Source of the DNA: a virus
Lineage: Duplodnaviria; Caudoviricetes
Strand: one strand, 5' to 3'
Length of the DNA stretch: 30,348 nucleotides
Virus record (IMG/VR): IMGVR_UViG_3300025151_000183
Coordinates: 1 to 30,348 of that record
Under the pieces are notes generated by a model, which was not told the origin of the DNA, made no database searches, and worked only from the letters and a program-made list of their open reading frames with translations. This document shows, in pieces, positions 10,079 to 30,348 of the stretch; position 1 is the stretch's first letter; each line of letters starts with the position of its first letter. The translations under genes and the position numbers were made by a program.

Positions 10079-10429
10079 ATGAAATTCCTTGCTATCCTCC
10101 CCGCAACCCTGTTCGCCGCTGCTCCCGCACTGGCTGGTCCTTATGCTAACATCGAAGCTAACAGTGGCTTCACCGGTTCTGACTACACTGGCACTGCTAC
10201 CGATTTCCACCTGGGTGTGGAAGGTGCATCTGGTGTTGCCTCCTATGGCATCCAAGCTGGTCCTACTGTTGTCTCCCCTGACGGCGGTGAATCCGAAACC
10301 ATCCTGACTGGTAAGGTCTTCGGCTCTGTTGCTGCTAGTGATAAGCTCTCCGTCTACGGTGAAATCTCTGCTGCCTTTGACGACACCAACTCCTACGGTA
10401 CCAAGGCTGGCGTGAAGTACGCTTTCTGA
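10079..10429 (+). CDS. Secreted small outer-membrane beta-strand protein
   Basis: Signal peptide MKFLAILPATLFAAAPALA, alternating amphipathic strands, C-terminal GVKYAF (BAM beta-signal-like). Confidence 0.8.
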   Translation: MKFLAILPATLFAAAPALAGPYANIEANSGFTGSDYTGTATDFHLGVEGASGVASYGIQAGPTVVSPDGGESETILTGKVFGSVAASDKLSVYGEISAAFDDTNSYGTKAGVKYAF

Positions 10430-10432
10430 TAA

Positions 10433-10513
10433 AGTATAGGGCTGGACTGGACAAGCGCCTTGCCAGCCCTTACTAAAGTGCGCTCATACTTACCCTCACA
10501 TAACAACGCACTT
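10433..10513 (+). promoter_or_regulatory. Structured psbA 5' leader (PhotoRC-like candidate)
   Basis: AGGGCTGG 10438-45 pairs with CCAGCCCT 10463-70; loop AGCGC 10454-58 can pair with GCGCT 10480-84; AAGTGCG 10476-82 pairs with CGCACTT 10507-13. Confidence 0.5.
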
Positions 10514-10518
10514 AATTA

Positions 10519-11598
10519 ATGACTGCTACTATCGCCTTGAAAAAACAGTCGGGTGCCTGGGAACAATTTTGTGACTGGGTAACTTCGACTAATAATCGCC
10601 TTTACGTTGGTTGGTTTGGAACACTGATGATTCCGTGTCTCCTTGCTGCCACCACTTGTTTCATCGTAGCGTTCATCGCTGCGCCACCCGTAGACATTGA
10701 TGGAATCCGAGAACCAGTCGCAGGCTCCCTCCTCTATGGAAACAACATCATATCGGGAGCCGTCGTTCCGAGCAGCAATGCCATCGGACTACACTTCTAC
10801 CCAATTTGGGAAGCTAGTTCACTTGATGAATGGCTCTACAACGGGGGACCGTTCCAACTCGTCGTCTTCCACTTCCTCATTGGTATCTATGCTTACATGG
10901 GACGAGAGTGGGAACTTAGCTATCGATTAGGGATGCGTCCCTGGATCTTTGTTGCCTACTCTGCTCCTGTCGCTGCAGCCTCTGCAGTGTTCCTCATCTA
11001 CCCCTTCGGTCAAGGATCTTTCTCTGATGCAATGCCACTCGGTATCTCCGGTACGTTTAACTACATGCTGGTCTTCCAAGCTGAACACAATATTCTCATG
11101 CATCCGTTCCACATGCTTGGAGTCGCTGGTGTATTTGGGGGTAGCCTGTTTAGCGCTATGCACGGTAGTCTTGTCACGTCTTCTCTTGTTCGTGAAACGA
11201 CAGAGGACATGTCTCTTAATTATGGCTACAAGTTTGGTCAAGAGGAAGAGACGTATAACATTGTAGCTGCACATGGATACTTCGGACGACTTATTTTCCA
11301 GTACGCATCCTTTAACAATAGCCGTAGCCTTCACTTTTTTCTGGCTGCTTGGCCTGTCGTTGGCATTTGGTTCACTAGTTTGGGCGTGTCTACGATGGCC
11401 TTTAATCTTAACGGTTTTAATTTTAACCAGTCCCTACTGGATAGCCAGGGACGTGTTGTGCGGACTTGGGCTGATGTGCTCAACCAAGCGAACCTTGGAT
11501 TCGAAGTCATGCATGAACGTAATGCTCACAACTTTCCACTAGACCTCGCTGCTGCAGACGTAACTCCTGTTGCTCTTACTGCACCTGCTGTAGGCTAA
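10519..11598 (+). CDS. psbA: Photosystem II D1 protein
   Basis: [47 protein letters not shown]; full length and uninterrupted. Confidence 0.99.
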
Positions 11599-11605
11599 TC
11601 TCCGT

Positions 11606-11658
11606 CCGTTCATCCCCACAAGGGACGCATGAAGCTTGATCATGGAACGGGGGTCAAG
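11606..11658 (+). ncRNA. Glutamine riboswitch-like RNA (Downstream-peptide / glutamine-II type)
   Basis: P1 CCGTTC 11606-11 / GAACGG 11645-50; hairpin TCCC 11613-16 / GGGA 11622-25; CATG 11628-31 / CATG 11641-44; pseudoknot CTTGAT 11635-40 / GTCAAG 11653-58; directly upstream of a YRG-motif peptide. Confidence 0.82.
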
Positions 11659-11673
11659 TACTTGGAGATTATC

Positions 11674-11736
11674 ATGGCTATTCAAGTCACCTACAAGTAT
11701 CGCGGCGTTTCTTACACCAAACAGGTAGTCCGTTAA
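11674..11736 (+). CDS. 20-aa YRG-motif peptide (DUF4278-like)
   Basis: MAIQVTYKYRGVSYTKQVVR*; GGAG at 11664-67; YRGxxY is typical of ORFs behind Downstream-peptide RNAs. Confidence 0.8.
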   Translation: MAIQVTYKYRGVSYTKQVVR

Positions 11737-11885
11737 AGCGGCATAGGGAGGTGCAAACCCTCCCTTACCTATTGGCATTGGCCCTTACGAGGACACCCTT
11801 TGCCGTCTAGACGGTGGGATAGACCACAATAAAACTAAATAACTCTGAACGTTCAGAGAGTTGCTAATAACTACTCTCTTTAAAA

Positions 11886-13058
11886 ATGGCTTTTCAATCT
11901 TCTGTCAACCCTGCGCAGCTAACCCGGCAAGGCCAAAACAATGGTACCGGTGACGCTCGCGCTCTTTACCTGAAGTTGTTTTCAGGTGAAATGTTCAAAG
12001 GCTTCCAAAACAACACGATCGCGCGTGATCTTGTGATGCGTCGTGTACTCAAAGGTGGTAAGAGTCTCCAGTTTATCTACACTGGACGTACTACCGCTGA
12101 GTACCATACTCCTGGTAACAGCATCCTTGGTGATTCGGATGGTCGTCCCCCGGTGGCTGAGAAGACGATCACCTGTGATGATCTTCTGATCTCCAGTGCA
12201 TTCGTGTACGAATTGGATGAAGTTCTGTCGCATTACGACCTGCGTAGCGAAATCTCTCGCAAGATTGGTTATGCTCTCGCAGAAAAGTATGACCGTTTGA
12301 TCTTCCGTGCTATCGCCAAAGGTGCACGTCAAGCTTCTCCTGTCCAATCCGTTGGTACCGGTGGTAGCCTGGTGAGCATGGAAGAGCCTGGTGGTACCCA
12401 GATCCAAGTTGGTACTGGTACCGGTGCTCTGTCTGATGCTTATGATGCCGCTAAGCTGGTGTCCGCATTCTATGATGCAGCTGCTGCTCTTGACGAAAAG
12501 GGCGTCAGCCAAGACGGTCGTGTTGCCGTCCTGAACCCCCGTCAGTACTACGCTCTGATTCAAGCTACTGGTGACAGTGGTCTGATCAACCGCGATGTCC
12601 AAGGTGCTGCGCTGCAAAGCGGCCAGGGCCTGGTTGAGATCGCTGGTATCAAGATCTACCGTAGCATGAATATTCCTTTCATGGGTAACTACGGTGTCAA
12701 GTACGGCGGTACCACTGGTGTTGGTGCTCCTGGTAACACTGGCGACTTCGTTGGTAGCGATACCGAACTCGAAGACGGCGGCGGTGTCACCGGCATGAAC
12801 AACAACTACGGTGAGCAAAATGCTTTCGATACTTCCTGTGGTCTGATCTTCCAACGTGAAGCAGCCGGTTGTGTTGAAGCTATCGCTCCTCAAGTTCAGG
12901 TCACCAGCGGTGACGTGTCCGTGATTTATCAGGGTGACGTTATCCTGGGTCGTCTCGCCATGGGCGCTGACTTCCTGAACCCCGCTGCTTGTGTGGAACT
13001 CCACGCTACCAGCACTGCAGGTTCTGCCTTCGGCACGACTTATCCTGCTAACGCCTGA
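11886..13058 (+). CDS. Major capsid protein, T7 gp10-like
   Basis: ALYLKLFSGEMF, GGKSLQF, DDLLISS, YDLRSEIS..IGYALA, GRLAMGA..LNPA. Confidence 0.97.
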   Translation: MAFQSSVNPAQLTRQGQNNGTGDARALYLKLFSGEMFKGFQNNTIARDLVMRRVLKGGKSLQFIYTGRTTAEYHTPGNSILGDSDGRPPVAEKTITCDDLLISSAFVYELDEVLSHYDLRSEISRKIGYALAEKYDRLIFRAIAKGARQASPVQSVGTGGSLVSMEEPGGTQIQVGTGTGALSDAYDAAKLVSAFYDAAAALDEKGVSQDGRVAVLNPRQYYALIQATGDSGLINRDVQGAALQSGQGLVEIAGIKIYRSMNIPFMGNYGVKYGGTTGVGAPGNTGDFVGSDTELEDGGGVTGMNNNYGEQNAFDTSCGLIFQREAAGCVEAIAPQVQVTSGDVSVIYQGDVILGRLAMGADFLNPAACVELHATSTAGSAFGTTYPANA

Positions 13059-20181: not shown

Positions 20182-23100
20182 ATGAGTAATTTGAGCTTCG
20201 GAGATCTTGAAGCGGATTACGTTCTAACTGATGAGGAAAAAGCTAACCTTCGTTCTGAAGAGTCTGTACAAGAGATTCAGGCAAAAGTTAAGGAAGAGCA
20301 AGCGGAGCGGCTAGCGCGTGATGCACAGCAACAAGCTGTGGAACAGGCTGAAGCAGCTCCCACACCTCAAGGGGAACAGCCTTCTACGGAAGGACAACAA
20401 CCGCAACAACAAGCTCCTGCTACTTCTACGGAAGAGCCTTTTGATCCTAGTAAAGATTACTCCTACTATGCCGCACGTGGTATGAGTAGGAAAGAGTGGA
20501 ACCGCCTACAACTTAGTGGTGGTGTTGACAGTGAGATGAAAGGATTCTCTGAAGATCCTCGCAGTGCTTTTGAATTAGCTACTGCAGTTCCTACAGGTTT
20601 ACTTGATTTTGGTGCTGATCTGGCTAACAGATTCTTACCTAAGAGTGCTTTCCAAATACCTAAACTTACTAAATACGAAAACGGTATTGCCCAAACAGTA
20701 CGTGATATTGCAGCAGTTGTAGGTCCTACGATGGGTCTGCAAAGCTTGGGTATGCGTGCTGGAGCTGCATTACAGACTCGTGTTGGTTGGCGTTTAGGTA
20801 ACACCGCTTTTATGCGGTTTCTTGGAGCCCGTGGTGTAGAAGCTGGAAGCAGTGTAGCCGTTGGTTCTGTTAGCGCCAACTATGAAGAAGGCGACAACTT
20901 AATGGGTAGTATTAAAAAAGCACTGCCTGCTCAATGGGACTATATTCCTGATAATTGGGCAACGCTTGATAGTAACAGCCCTGACGAAAACCGTCAAAAG
21001 ATGATTAATGAAGACCTGGCTTTAGGTTTCATTATTCCTTTTGTTAGGTTTGCTGGTAAGTTTGGGGAAAGTATTGGTGAAGTCCGTGATGTCTTTTCCA
21101 ACCCTCCTAAGCTTGTAGGTAAAACTAAAAAAGCTCAAGCCTACCTAGATGCTGCTGCTCCAGCTGCAGATGATGTAGATGACTTGACTAAATATGCTTT
21201 GGGACAGGAAGATGCACTAGATGAAATTGGTGCTTACAACCTCTCTCAAAATCCTAACATGGACGTAGCACTGAAAGGTGTTCACGATCTTTATGATTGG
21301 AATGAGATTGGTATGCGTACCGTTGATGATTTTGGTATCATCGGTGCTAGTGTGGATGCTGTCCGTATTGCTAAGAACTACGACACTGTCTATGGTCGCT
21401 TGCGCTCAGTTGCTAGTCCTCCGGCTATTAAATACGCTGGTACTAACCCAATGGGTGCTGAAGAAGTTACCTTAGGTCTGACTCAACAGCTTAAGGAGGC
21501 TGATGAGTATGGTATGCAAGCTAAGAACTGGTCTATCAGTTTTGATGATGTTGTCAAACAGGGTGATAATCTAGCCGTTGAGTTGTTTGACCCTTCGATG
21601 AGTGTTAAAGAACTGCGTGAAACGCTAGAGCCATTTATTGTTAAAACAAAGGATGGTGTAGAGTACGTTGCTGAAGATGGTTACGCTAAACTGTTTGAAG
21701 CAGTGGGGACTATGAGAAAAGAGTTTACTAGCATGGATATTGCTAGAACTCAAGGTTACCTTGCAACCTCTTTGGCTGGTGGTGTATCTGACCTTGCAGA
21801 AGGTATTCGTATCAATGCAGGTTCTAAGTCAATTGCTAATGCTCAAGAGCGTCTAAAAGAGAACTTGATGTTCTTGATGAAGCTGCAAGGTGTTAGCCGT
21901 TACTACGCTAATAAAAAGAAATCTACTAGAAATCTTTTCAAAAAACTTATTAGTAAAGGACAATCACCTAATAAGATAGAAGCTATTCAAGATGAACTTC
22001 CAGGAGTTCTTAATCAGGTTCAACGAGATGTCAACCTATTTGGGGATAGTCTCGACTACCTGATGAACGAGCATCCTAAAGTTGCTGATGCTTTGTTAGA
22101 ATTGTATGAGTTGACTGATGGACGTGTTAATAGCATCTCTCGTCTTAACGAAGAGGTGTTGAATGCCTTTACTCGCTGGCGTCCTTTGATTGATCGCAAT
22201 CCCGAAGCGCCAAACATTTTGGCACAGGCTGTTAAAGGCAATTATTATAACTCTATGTTGTCTTCTATTGACACTGGTCTGTCAGCCTTCTTTGGTAACA
22301 TCGGTGGTACTATTGCAGAACCAGTGGCTTATTTTGCCGGTGCTGTACTCCGCCGTGATTTAGATTCAATTCAACGTGGTTGGATGGCATACAGTGCTAT
22401 CAGTGATACTCAGCGTAAAGCCTTGCCTTATGCTGGAAAGATGTTTATGAAAGCATCCCAGAATCCCAACTCTGTTCAAAGCCAAACTCGTCTTGATCTG
22501 ATTGTTCAACAAGAGCAGAAAATTAATGCTTACAAAAAACTAGCTGAAGATGCAGCAGCTCAAGATAAGCATGGTTTGACTTACGTGATCAATTTCTATG
22601 AGGCTCAAAAGCACATGGAAGCTGATCCTGTATTCCGTTTCATTCCCAATACCTTTACTGGTATGGATGGATGGTCTAATGCAAGCCTGGCTAACGCTCA
22701 TGCTCGTTTCCGTGCTATGAGTGAGCTTAAGCGTCTTGGTAAAGAAGCTAAACGTGGTGACATCAAAAAGATTGCTGATGCAAATTACAACAGCATGTTT
22801 GATGAGAACGGACTTATTGCAGACGAAGCTGTTAAATATAATAACGCTGAAATTGCACTTAACCTTGACACTGAAATGGTTAAGGCATTGGATGAGTTTT
22901 TGCGGCACGTTCCAGCAGCTAGGATGTTCTTCCTGTTCCCCACTACAATGGCAAACGTTGTCAAATTGACTGACGACTATATGCCCTTGCCGTTTAAGAG
23001 TTTCCAAAAGGATATTCAAGATCTTGCATTTACCTCTGTTGATGATCTAGTGGCTAATCCTGAGTTGATGGATAGCCTACTAACTAATCGTGGGTTCAGT

Positions 23101-26426: not shown

Positions 26427-29400
26427 GGAAGACTTTTTCTTTGCCGGTGGCTGCTACTGCAGCTGCTGGCGGCGGAGGGGGTACTCCCCCACCGGCTGAT
26501 ACTGTTGACAACATTGAACATTCGGTACGGTTTAACTCGGCTGATTCGGCGTACCTTAGTCGCACCTTCTCATCGGCGGGTAACAGAAAGACGTGGACCT
26601 GGAGTGGGTGGGTAAAACTATCCTCAACAGGTGATGCTGCGCTATTTAGCGCTCCTAATACTGAGGCTTATATTTATGGCAACGTTTTAAGAATCTATCA
26701 AAGTGTTGCTAGCAATAATGAGATTAGAACAGATGCTGTATTTAGAGACTGCTCTGCTTGGTATCATATTGTCATCGCTTACGATACTACACAATCGACT
26801 GGACCAGATCGAGTCAAAATTTATGTAAACGGTGTTGAACAAAGTTTAAATGGTTCTTATCCCGCCCAGGATCAAAACGTTGGAATTAACGCTAGCTCCG
26901 AACACAGAATTGGAAGGACATACTACAGCAACCCTTATTTAGATGCCTACCTTGCTAACGTCCACTTCATTGACGGTCAAGCACTAAATTCATCTTATTT
27001 CGGTTTCACCGATTCCAACAACGTATGGCAACCCAAAGCCTTCAGCGGTTCATACGGTACTAACGGTTTCCACCTTGACTTCGCTGACACCTCCTCTGCT
27101 ACTGCACTTGGCAACGATGTAAGCGGTAATAACAACGACTGGACTGCTAGTGGTCTTGTCGCTGGACCGGCTTACACGGCTAATAGCTGGAGTACGGAGT
27201 TTGACGGTACTGGGGATTACCTTACTATTCCTGACAACACTGCGTTTGCTCTTGGTACAGATGACTTTACCATCGAGTTTTGGGCATATTTCCAAGGTTC
27301 TGGATCGTACGAAACCCTTTTTGACATCAGACCCTCAAATGGAAATTATCCAGCAATATTTAGAGATGCCGTAGATGGTGATCTTTACTATTATGTGAAT
27401 AACAGTAGGTTAATAGATAACGTTTCTGTTTCTAATAACCAATGGTATCATATTGCTATAGCTAGAGAAGGTACTACAACAAAGTTCTTCTTAAATGGGG
27501 CGGTAGCAGGATCTGCAACTGATTCCACAAACTACCTTAGTAGCGATGTAAAAGTAGGTTCATACACTGGTGGTGGTAATTACTTTACAGGTAAGATCTC
27601 TAACTTCCGCATCATCAAAGGTCGTGCACTTTATACCGCTGCCTTTACCCCGCCTTCAACTGCTCTAACTGCTACTGACGACACTGTTCTACTTACCTGT
27701 CAAGATCAGACTGTCCGTGATAACAGCAACCTTGGTCACAGTGTTACCGTTACCGGTGATACAACTTTTGTTAACGAAGGTCCGTTTAACGGGTACTCAG
27801 GCAACTTTGACGGAACTGGGGATTACCTGACTATTCCTAATAGTGCTGACCACAACTTTGGAACAGGTGATTTCACCATTGAAGGTTGGTTTAAGACTTC
27901 TGCAACTGTATCGTACCAAACGATTATGCATAAGTACGGTTCACCTACAAGTTATAATGGCTGGTATATTTCCTTAAATTCAGGTGGAACAGGATTTTAC
28001 TTCAGTATTGTTGATGGTAGCGGTTCAAGCAAAGTCCTAGCTGGTGGCAGTAATCTCAATAATGGTGCATGGCATCACTTCGCTGTTTCCCGGTCAGGCA
28101 CTTCGTTAAAGCTGTTTATAGATGGTACCTCAGTCGATACTGCTACTAACAGCTGGAACATTACATCTACTGCTGATCTACGAATAAGCGGTATTGCAGG
28201 CAATCCTAGAGATTGGAATGGTCAGCTGTCGAACATCCGTATCGTCAAAGGTCAGGCTCTCTACACTGCTAACTTCACGCCTCCTACCGCAGATCTAACC
28301 ACCACAAGCCAAGGTGCTACTGCGTCTAACGTCAAACTTCTGACGTGTCAAGACAGCACGTTTGCGGATAAGAGTGGCGTTGGTGAAGCTATTACTGCTA
28401 ATGGTAACGCTGCAGTTTCTACGTCTGCACCGTTTGCTAATCATCACTCTGTTGAATTTGACGGAACTGGTGATTATTTGAGCATTGCTGATAGCACTGG
28501 TTTTGATCTTGGTTTAAGTAGTGAACCCTTTACACTCGAAGCGTGGGTATACCCTAATACTTTGGGGACAAATTCAGTACTTGGTAGAGGTGGTGGTGCT
28601 GCTGGATGGAATACTTCAAATGGTCATCAATATATTTTATTTTACAGTGGTGGTACTGACTTATATTTCCAGTGGTGGAATGGTAGCAGCATATCAAGTA
28701 TCAACTCTACTAATGCACTAACAACCAATGTTTGGACACATTTGGCAGTTGTCTACGATGGTACTGATGTAAAGGTGTATAAGAATGGTACGCTACTATT
28801 GACTGGTGGTAGTGCTACTTTTGCAAAACCATCTGCTAGTAACATTACTCGAATAGGTAATCTTGCATCTGGTGGTGCTGAGTGGGACGGTAAGATTTCT
28901 AACGTCCGTCTAACCAAAGGTCAAGCACTCTATACCGCTGCGTTCACTCCTTCTACCACACCTCTAACCACAACTAGCCAAGGTGCAAAGGCAGGTAATG
29001 TCAAGCTCCTTACTTGTAACGGCAGCACGATTGTCGATACAAGCGGTAAGAACATTACGGCGAACGGTGATGCCAGCACTATTGCTGTCAACCCTCACAC
29101 CGACAAGTATTCGGTGACGTTTGATGGGACGGGTGATTACCTAGATATTGCGTCTAATACTGATTTTGCTTTCGGTACTGGTGACTTCACTATTGAAGCA
29201 TGGGTATACCCAGATGCGACTAACCTTGGCGTTATCTACAGCAATGAAGTCGCCAATAGCTTGTTTTTGTACTTTGACAATAATGTTTTTAGAGTTAGAA
29301 ATTACGCGACAGCTGACCTAATTACTACAGCAGCACCGAGTACTAGCGCTTGGACTCATATCGCAGTAACTCGGTCAGGTACTGACCTACGTTTGTTTTA

Positions 29401-30348
29401 CAACGGAGTGCAGCAAGGAAGTACAGTTACTAACTCAACAAACTTTACTCAAAATGGTGTAGAGATTGGTGCATTTGGAAATGGTCAACAGTCGTTGGAC
29501 GGCAAAATTTCCAACCTGCGTGTTACCAAAGGTCAAGCTCTCTATACCTCCGATTTCCTACCCAGCAAAGAAGACCTTACCACTACTTCCCAAGGTGCAA
29601 CGGCTTCTAACGTTAAACTGCTGACTTGTCAGTCGTACAAGATCCAAGATAACTCCGCTAGCGCTCATACGATCACTGTTAATGGTGACGCTGCTCCTTC
29701 TACTGACGCACCGTTTGTGACCAGTGGAGCGGGTAGTTTTGACGGGACTGGTGATATGTTGTCACTAGCCTCCACAGACGATTTTAACTTCGGCACTAAT
29801 CCGTTTACTATTGAGTTTTGGCTGAGACCTACAGTAGCTCAGGCACAATATGCAGGTGTAGTTGTACAAGGTATAGATGGTGGTTATTCATGGTTTGTCC
29901 AGTACGATGGAGCCGGTAGCAAGCTTAGGCTTACTGATTGGGGTACTAATTTTCTGATAACGACTAATTCACCTCCTGTAAACACTTGGACGCATTATGC
30001 GTATGTAAGAGAAGGTACTGGAACCGATGAAGCTAAAGTATATGTAAATGGTGTATTAGATGTATCTGGAACAATGCCCACTGCATTTGGTCAAACTTCT
30101 GAACTATTTATAGGTGGGGGTTATTCAGGTGGGGGTAGACCTAGGTTCCAAGGCAATATTTCTAACCTCCGTATCTCCAAAGGTCTCGCCCGTTACACCG
30201 CTAACTTCACACCTCCTACCGAAGACTTCGATCCAGCTGATCAAAACACTACCTTCCTTGCTCTCCAAGGTAACACCATTGACGACCTTTCTGGTAATGA
30301 CCACGCTGTAAGCGCTCTTGGTAACGCAGCTACAACTACCGTTAGTCC
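26423..30348 (+). CDS. Giant LamG/concanavalin-A-like repeat protein, probable receptor-binding fibre (>1300 aa, 3'-truncated)
   Basis: ATG overlaps the upstream stop (ATGA); begins MRKTFSLPVAATAAAGGGGG...SVRFNSADSAYLSRT...RKTWTWSGWVK; the same frame is kept at all repeat motifs checked and at the window end. Its absence from the ORF track is consistent with no stop being reached. Confidence 0.9.
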   Translation, partial: MRKTFSLPVAATAAAGGGGGTPPPADTVDNIEHSVRFNSADSAYLSRTFSSAGNRKTWTWSGWVKLSSTGDAALFSAPNTEAYIYGNVLRIYQSVASNNEIRTDAVFRDCSAWYHIVIAYDTTQSTGPDRVKIYVNGVEQSLNGSYPAQDQNVGINASSEHRIGRTYYSNPYLDAYLANVHFIDGQALNSSYFGFTDSNNVWQPKAFSGSYGTNGFHLDFADTSSATALGNDVSGNNNDWTASGLVAGPAYTANSWSTEFDGTGDYLTIPDNTAFALGTDDFTIEFWAYFQGSGSYETLFDIRPSNGNYPAIFRDAVDGDLYYYVNNSRLIDNVSVSNNQWYHIAIAREGTTTKFFLNGAVAGSATDSTNYLSSDVKVGSYTGGGNYFTGKISNFRIIKGRALYTAAFTPPSTALTATDDTVLLTCQDQTVRDNSNLGHSVTVTGDTTFVNEGPFNGYSGNFDGTGDYLTIPNSADHNFGTGDFTIEGWFKTSATVSYQTIMHKYGSPTSYNGWYISLNSGGTGFYFSIVDGSGSSKVLAGGSNLNNGAWHHFAVSRSGTSLKLFIDGTSVDTATNSWNITSTADLRISGIAGNPRDWNGQLSNIRIVKGQALYTANFTPPTADLTTTSQGATASNVKLLTCQDSTFADKSGVGEAITANGNAAVSTSAPFANHHSVEFDGTGDYLSIADSTGFDLGLSSEPFTLEAWVYPNTLGTNSVLGRGGGAAGWNTSNGHQYILFYSGGTDLYFQWWNGSSISSINSTNALTTNVWTHLAVVYDGTDVKVYKNGTLLLTGGSATFAKPSASNITRIGNLASGGAEWDGKISNVRLTKGQALYTAAFTPSTTPLTTTSQGAKAGNVKLLTCNGSTIVDTSGKNITANGDASTIAVNPHTDKYSVTFDGTGDYLDIASNTDFAFGTGDFTIEAWVYPDATNLGVIYSNEVANSLFLYFDNNVFRVRNYATADLITTAAPSTSAWTHIAVTRSGTDLRLFYNGVQQGSTVTNSTNFTQNGVEIGAFGNGQQSLDGKISNLRVTKGQALYTSDFLPSKEDLTTTSQGATASNVKLLTCQSYKIQDNSASAHTITVNGDAAPSTDAPFVTSGAGSFDGTGDMLSLASTDDFNFGTNPFTIEFWLRPTVAQAQYAGVVVQGIDGGYSWFVQYDGAGSKLRLTDWGTNFLITTNSPPVNTWTHYAYVREGTGTDEAKVYVNGVLDVSGTMPTAFGQTSELFIGGGYSGGGRPRFQGNISNLRISKGLARYTANFTPPTEDFDPADQNTTFLALQGNTIDDLSGNDHAVSALGNAATTTVS
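27200..30348 (+). repeat. Five tandem LamG-like modules of about 200-220 aa
   Basis: FDGTGD(Y/M)L starts at 27200, 27806, 28457, 29120, 29738 (spacings 606, 651, 663, 618 nt); each module has FT(I/L)E.W and SNxRxxKGxAxYT. Confidence 0.92.

Follow-up and report, generated by a model that had tools for sequence, protein, structure and literature searches.

Genomic setting and parts of the locus

The window, i.e. the whole 30,348-nucleotide stretch of DNA analyzed here, belongs to a T7-like cyanophage and encodes a primase/helicase, a split family-A polymerase, an exonuclease, RNR, a portal, a scaffold, an OMP-like protein, psbA, the major capsid protein and tail genes. The riboswitch described below occupies the spacer between psbA and the capsid gene, inside the phage head operon. 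The following features were assigned:

10519..11598, + strand: psbA (D1, 359 aa; PF00124, E 5e-87), whose TAA begins the 5' strand of the closing helix P0
11590..11594, + strand: GTAGG in the last psbA codons, predicted to form a second helix with CCTAC at 11690-11694 in the peptide ORF
11596..11604, + strand: 5' strand of P0, the anti-Shine-Dalgarno (anti-SD) strand in the window phage
11605..11606, + strand: UC linker, whose predicted partners in the ligand-free (MFE) fold are G11651/G11650, in competition with the aptamer pairs A33:G42 and C19:G41
11607..11659, + strand: Glutamine-II aptamer (C1-A6, 11607-12; P1, 11613-16/11622-25; linker CGCA, 11626-29; P2, 11634-41/11652-59; loop A33-G42, 11642-51)
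11663..11671, + strand: 3' strand of P0 with the SD-like GGAG at 11664-11667
11674..11736, + strand: ORF of the 20-aa YRG peptide, YRG codons at 11698-11706
11723..11827, + strand: capsid-leader structured RNA, separate from the riboswitch, with a tRNA-like domain (11723-11770) overlapping the peptide stop and a covarying domain (11773-11827)
11886..13058, + strand: T7-like major capsid gene

Scanning the interval between psbA and the capsid gene predicted neither a sigma70 promoter nor a terminator, and the sole plus-strand terminator-like site 3' of psbA is found at 13078-99, after the major capsid gene. Contigs of relatives in RNA libraries span the psbA end and the peptide (X2 11334-11711, X4 11421-11671); such contigs carry no strand, start or level and cannot prove a transcript. 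They stem from 7 different sequencing runs, out of 24 that all had small shares.

Two observations concern other parts of the window. The psbA 5' leader (10438-10512) is predicted to form a GC hairpin and a GTGCG/CGCAC helix (z -4.3, 0/200 shuffles) and has no Rfam match, PhotoRC motifs included. Further, the roughly 4 kb at 26430-30348 hold only four ORFs of at least 60 aa, all of them short.

The structure of the capsid-leader RNA is conserved. It gave no Rfam match at E<=10 and no tRNA or tmRNA was called by ARAGORN. Domain A is tRNA-like in 27 of 55 distinct copies, with an acceptor-like stem, a D-arm-like hairpin holding the peptide stop, a T-arm and no anticodon arm; in 25 of the 55, an alternative hairpin with a CACCTCA..TCGGA loop is found. 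In domain B, both the outer and the inner helices covary (33 different outer helices; own strands -5.1 vs -3.7 when swapped, 0/5000), and a GTC-(TA/AT/none)-GAC palindrome is present. The structure accompanies the capsid gene even where other genes intervene. We regard it as a candidate processing or control element.

Identity of the aptamer and the YRG peptide

The sole Rfam match in the window is to RF01704 (Glutamine-II) at 11604-11659, scoring 53.4 bits against a gathering threshold of 33 and covering the full model (1-60). P1, P2 and the CGUUC/GAACG pseudoknot were all found. Compared with the available crystal-structure text of PMC6698751, whose base numbering is used throughout, the ligand-contact bases C1, G18, C19, C39, G40 and G41 and the A33:G42 pair are all present. 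Judged by its sequence, the element is a member of the type-2 Glutamine-II/Downstream-peptide aptamer family, the motif defined in PMC2864571, and would by this membership be a glutamine-sensing RNA switch of a known family. The initial annotation had placed a Downstream-peptide-type glutamine RNA in front of a YRG ORF, which is borne out by this above-threshold match and by the 20-aa ORF. It had also named the glnA (type-1) model for the search; RF01739 gave no match at E<=10 within 10200-12100, and the same holds for all Rfam families other than RF01704 in this interval.

In the available text of the respective papers, MED4's type-2 element acts as an ON switch when placed in a reporter (PMC6212724), and a competing RBS-occluding structure is called 'likely' with none being named (PMC6698751). 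The latter also recounts that P1 and P2 were formed even without ligand in earlier in-line probing. The parts seen of other reports describe glnA-like riboswitches in myoviruses (PMC9004378, PMC9964418) and a host copy that lies in a deletion (PMC12379486). In the full text that was searched, neither a closing helix nor upstream coupling was found described for the Glutamine-II class; Ames and Breaker 2011 and a passage of Additional File 1 of PMC2864571, which concerns a 'possible regulatory mechanism' of the peptide motif, were outside this scope and may bear on novelty.

The ATG at 11674 starts MAIQVTYKYRGVSYTKQVVR (20 aa) and the stop codon ends at 11736. YRG was found in 199 of 199 distinct phage copies, a count to be read with the start codon choice, which favoured such a motif. 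An in-frame ATG at 11629 gives a 35-aa reading and has no SD. For both readings, Pfam returned no match at E<=10, PF14105 (DUF4278) included, with sensitivity limited by the short length. The 38-aa homologue of phage S-TIP37 matched DUF4278 weakly (E 0.065, 14.1 bits vs a cut-off of 25.3). Inhibition of glutamine synthetase (GS) is, in the available text of PMC6212724, a guess for the host IF17-like homologues and itself undemonstrated.

A predicted helix between the psbA stop codon and the Shine-Dalgarno sequence

TAATCTCCG at 11596-11604 starts with the psbA TAA, and TGGAGATTA at 11663-11671 contains GGAG (11664-67). The 9-bp helix TAATCTCCG:TGGAGATTA reported in the initial annotation, with eight Watson-Crick pairs and one G-U pair, was confirmed, and the aptamer fold was found to lie wholly within it as claimed: everything from C1 (11607) to the end of P2 (11659) is enclosed and G11604 alone is shared with the unconserved first position of the Rfam model. 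The predicted probability of this stop/SD helix is 0.99; the whole 81-nt fold is unremarkable vs shuffles (z -1.5). On the plus strand of the window, an 8-bp Watson-Crick complement of GGAGATTA occurs once, at 11596. If G-U pairs are allowed, 9/9 pairing is possible at six places in the window, and 55 of 5000 random window 20-mers (ca. 1%) pair equally well.

Conservation in relatives, which the initial annotation had named as a check, was observed within the clade of the window phage. The 5' strand of P0 is invariant in all 27 distinct close relatives, in which 16 of 20 neighbouring psbA third positions vary. Among 45 clade loci, selected by inner aptamer sequence with a pattern that also fixed the first three bases of the 3' strand, the SD helix has a perfect 8 bp in 37 and 7 bp in two. 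The GTAGG:CCTAC pairing is maintained (C or U, giving G-C or G-U) in 25 of the 27 distinct copies. Across 199 phage copies, the UC linker shows U at -2 in 98% and C at -1 in 78%.

Several other readings of these sequences were tried and rejected. The five clade loci without an SD helix could be taken to mean that the helix is dispensable, but in each of the five the flank has the YRG codons as its partner. A pairing between the conserved CGTC and an aptamer-internal GACG was dropped, as no covariation was seen. GTAGG at 11590-11594 can also be read as part of a -10-like hexamer, TAGGCT (11591-96), which would belong to an internal sigma70 promoter whose transcript omits the anti-SD strand. The scan found no promoter there, a rejection that is less firm for the window's own clade. 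In relatives, TAnnnT peaks are small (13 and 11 of 137 copies) and confounded with stop codons, and P-SSP7 and S-TIP37 are without a TAGGCT-like box.

The predicted closing helix P0 in phage and host copies

Four scans of viral contigs returned 120, 119, 45 and 120 loci, and the first gave an estimate of about 1300 matching IMG/VR stretches for one strict pattern. Filtering for P2 and the ORF left the 199 distinct phage copies. An unbiased set was formed by 137 of these, taken from two scans that required only the aptamer and were blind to the helix. The host set was obtained from 120 bacterial-genome loci, 36 of which passed the structure filter and 30 of which had a YRG peptide. Host copies mostly carry a GTA-N8-TAC or TATAAT motif immediately 5' of the aptamer and no upstream stop; the part seen of PMC6212724 reports a like promoter arrangement for the MED4 riboswitch. 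One phage-like copy (L340), a phage-type riboswitch with a 16-aa peptide in a Dehalococcoidia-binned contig, is probably a misbinned cyanophage and was left out of the host set. By BLAST, the region is present in 29 phage records including P-SSP7 and S-TIP37, 28 of them without an annotated feature.

We called a helix present if the 5' flank paired at <=-8 kcal/mol. Of the 137 unbiased copies, 88 pair the flank with the YRG codons, 17 with the RBS and two with both. The two forms are nearly exclusive (2 both, 15 SD only, 86 YRG only, 34 neither; p 3e-6), and nine of the 34 copies with neither helix are TTCGTAC types at -7.4/-7.5. None of the 30 host copies shows the YRG helix. All 45 clade loci carry one form or the other (39 SD, 5 YRG, 1 both). 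The five lacking the SD helix have YRG helices of -11 to -15. Four of them have a small ORF inserted after psbA and branch as sisters to SD-type loci in a capsid tree of low resolution (84 loci). RBS-type P0 helices with differing sequences on both strands were found as GTAGACTCCA:TGGAGTCTAC (L440), AATCCATAG:TTATGGATT (L117) and AAACTCC:GGAGTTT (L277), and also in L419, L503 and L208. In the S-TIP37-type group, P0 is TTCGTAC:GTACGAA and includes aptamer base C1, while in the P-SSP7 fold the flank pairs with the Y-R-G-V codons.

Flanks match their own partners better than those of other copies. Pairing of own flank with own RBS linker averaged -4.6 vs -3.3 kcal/mol after swapping (0/5000 permutations, 29 clusters, lax clustering), with the same result under stricter clustering and 17-20/5000 once three strong groups were removed. 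For the YRG codons, the values were -8.4 vs -6.3 swapped and -5.1 shuffled (0/5000, 77 representatives). Either helix was present in 40 of 60 representatives vs 21.1+/-2.8 when swapped and 12 in the upstream control. The paired flank/YRG columns show exchange between A-U and G-C (-5, 58/6; -8, 33 G-C and 16 A-U). Tree-aware covariation is significant in one of four columns (-5:Arg3; 3 changes on the same branch where 0.4 are expected, p 0.004); co-change on the tree is not above expectation in the three others. These comparisons of sequence mark the stop/SD pairing as one version of a closing helix peculiar to phages, P0, which is real and selected, and probably regulatory.

Other arrangements occur as well. 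In long-peptide copies, the YRG codons lie ca. 75 nt past the AUG, and 27 of 46 such copies still pair there. The flank is paired with an upstream GACG segment in seven copies, five of them behind a TATAAT.

Some individual copies are of separate interest. In P-SSP7 (L285 2008-2128; NC_006882.2 ~20525-20645), the riboswitch with an unannotated short YRG ORF is found 9 nt after PSSP7_028, and the SD is predicted to pair with the first codons of this ORF, stacked on a YRG-type P0. Five copies (L002, L016, L038, L045, L089) have a TATAAT ca. 30 nt upstream and no P0, the flank being part of a local GACGG/CCGTC hairpin. The 57-aa Prochlorococcus host copy (L287, L291, L300, L311 and similar) has a TTTCG over aptamer bases C1-G2 that is complementary to CGAAA just 5' of the ATG, a possible counterpart of the S-TIP37 type.

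Predicted OFF state and response to glutamine

On balance, we consider it somewhat probable that the locus is a type-2 glutamine riboswitch in a T7-like cyanophage head operon in which the stop/SD helix, as one form of the phage-specific P0, serves as the likely OFF-state expression platform for the YRG peptide. The fold predicted without ligand has P0 stacked on UCCGUUC:GAACGGG, a helix that engages G41 and G42, with CAUGA:UCAUG in place of P2. Without glutamine, this extended helix of 5' strand and loop would hide the RBS. Glutamine would then lock C1:G40 and C19:G41, freeing the UC linker, for which we infer a switching function from the modelled pairs. In the bound aptamer the two ends would be separated by the length of P2, with the 5' end at the top and the 3' end at the base, and only 2+3 unpaired bases would be left to join P0, so that strain would favour opening.

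The folding models limit how far this can be taken. In two dimensions, P0 of the window stays closed when the aptamer alone is locked (P 1.00; pseudoknot and 3D strain lie outside the model), and the link from glutamine to the helix is for this reason only an inferred one. In 2D, the fold with the locked aptamer is costlier by 3.6 kcal/mol, a figure that leaves pseudoknot and ligand energy out of account. The predicted OFF fold also differs from the P1 and P2 that formed ligand-free in earlier in-line probing, according to the available text of PMC6698751.

Possible coupling to upstream translation

The initial annotation went further and proposed a two-input gate, in which the helix is selected so that the peptide needs both psbA termination and glutamine and thereby reports D1 translation. 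We consider this reading unlikely, although part of it stands. A ribosome protects ca. 10 nt past its A site (PMC4824070, part seen), and the 5' strand of the window's P0, consisting of the stop codon plus 6 nt, falls inside this footprint of a terminating ribosome. Since psbA stops at the helix edge, terminating ribosomes would melt P0, and blocking the 5' strand in folding models lowers the RBS opening cost by ca. 3-4 kcal/mol. Of the 137 copies in the unbiased set, 75 have a stop codon whose end lies 8-11 nt 5' of C1 (2.7% at shifted anchors), and only six have one nearer than 8 nt. Among the 75 helices found in the 97 copies with a near stop, at least half of the 5' strand lies within stop+6 in 63, and 45 include stop bases. 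Within the clade, the SD form tracks psbA adjacency (39/40 vs 1/5), and the lack of a predicted sigma70 promoter or terminator between psbA and the capsid gene also fits the gate.

The comparative data speak against a D1-specific reading. The upstream gene is interchangeable: ORFs ending 8-11 nt before the aptamer have 54 different C-terminal hexapeptides and include OMP-like, scaffold and small basic ORFs besides many psbA variants. Only 36 of 137 copies are psbA-adjacent and 17 have the SD form. P0 is about as frequent without a nearby stop of a 30-codon ORF (28/40) as with one (75/97; p=0.39), and at least 11 copies whose flanks are non-coding also carry it. The P0 strand is itself as long as the 8-11 nt spacing, which is therefore accounted for by packing. 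Further, the ribosome alone opened the RBS in only 3 of 51 modelled YRG-short copies.

The glutamine input met with a similarly divided result. In the window, the modelled RBS opening cost (kcal/mol) is 11.1 for the free RNA, 12.3 with the aptamer, 8.3 with the ribosome and 6.1 with both, the lowest value. An added, AND-like glutamine effect of this kind was obtained for 25 of 27 window-type copies when the context reached to the YRG codons and for 2 of 27 when it reached to ATG+15, i.e. the term is gone in the shorter model. For the S-TIP37 type both inputs are additive in both models (8.7, 6.9, 4.6 and 2.6), because P0 overlaps C1. The mean opening cost is lowest with ribosome plus locked aptamer in five of six phage groups.

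Such coupling likely follows from genes being packed tightly against the element; it may have been exploited, but is likely no sensor dedicated to D1. If the transcript is continuous, psbA termination at the helix edge would melt P0 from time to time and probably raise output. A D1-specific two-input gate retains a small but appreciable probability, with the comparative data pointing elsewhere.

Closure, stability or chance as alternatives

P0 could instead be a closure or stability helix that joins riboswitch and ORF in a single domain and protects the 5' end once the late transcript has been processed, RBS repression being secondary. This, too, we regard as improbable, though some copies fit it better. 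The partner is interchangeable and extends to the far YRG codons and, in seven copies, to the upstream GACG segment. The long-peptide copies, in which the YRG codons are too far past the AUG for a direct block of initiation, and the seven upstream-paired ones are better accommodated here. Host copies, which have their own NtcA-type promoter, are without P0 (YRG helix 0/30), and the tRNA-like element overlaps the end of the peptide ORF. The part seen of PMC3113571 adds that the RNase E transcript goes up in P-SSP7 infection and that the enzyme cuts single-stranded A/U-rich RNA. However, P0 of the window clade, L440, L117, L419 and L503 pairs with the RBS itself, and translation requires the RBS to be opened.

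Finally, a chance complementarity inherited within one clade, with which the ca. 1% of equally well pairing 20-mers and the presence of the SD form in only 17 of 137 copies would agree, is very unlikely and largely refuted by the invariant strand beside variable wobble positions, the partner switch in all five clade loci without the SD helix (four of them sister to SD-type loci on the capsid tree) and the permutation tests (0/5000 flank/RBS, 0/5000 flank/YRG, 40/60 vs 21.1+/-2.8).

Discussion

We return to the preferred reading of P0 as the likely OFF-state expression platform. With known type-2 glutamine riboswitches (RF01704; PMC2864571, PMC6212724 and PMC6698751, as far as their available text goes), the window copy shares the aptamer, its invariant bases and the position before a short YRG/DUF4278-like ORF. 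In contrast to them, it is located right after a stop codon in a phage head operon and not behind an NtcA-type promoter, its peptide has only 20 aa, and it is enclosed by a 5'-flank helix which the 30 host copies examined are without. For the type-1 element (glnA, RF01739) of Synechocystis gifB, an ON switch has likewise been proposed, with glutamine melting a helix that blocks the RBS (PMC6212724, available text). The anti-RBS of that element belongs to the aptamer itself, as a 3' segment from C68 onward, whereas that of the window is the 5' flank outside the aptamer and that of the S-TIP37 type overlaps C1.

The window also resembles classical translational coupling, where a ribosome melts an RBS-sequestering helix, in that the upstream stop codon is part of the 5' strand of a helix hiding the downstream RBS. 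It differs from such systems as the loop of the helix holds a 53-nt ligand-binding domain and most relatives pair with another partner; coupling here is a prediction. More speculatively, and with rather low confidence, T7-like cyanophages may have turned a promoter-proximal host riboswitch into an operon-internal two-input device. Terminating ribosomes would open a stop-anchored helix, with RBS or YRG codons as partner, and the glutamine-bound aptamer would keep it open. Synthesis of a GS-directed peptide would then require high late-operon (here D1) translation together with high host nitrogen.

What is probably new here is that a known riboswitch class has, in its phage copies, a candidate expression platform, P0, as suggested by fold models. 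The phage copies offer a concrete candidate for the RBS-occluding structure inferred in the available text of PMC6698751, and they include natural compensatory variants as well as a switch of partner. The forms differ between two phages in culture: P-SSP7 has the YRG type, with its ORF unannotated, and S-TIP37 has the RBS type in which P0 overlaps C1. Mutants of S-TIP37 can be made (PMC12695635, part seen). As the element is very common (ca. 1300 IMG/VR stretches), it is relevant to how abundant marine viruses sense the nitrogen status of the host while virions are being produced, and to whether upstream translation can gate a natural riboswitch.
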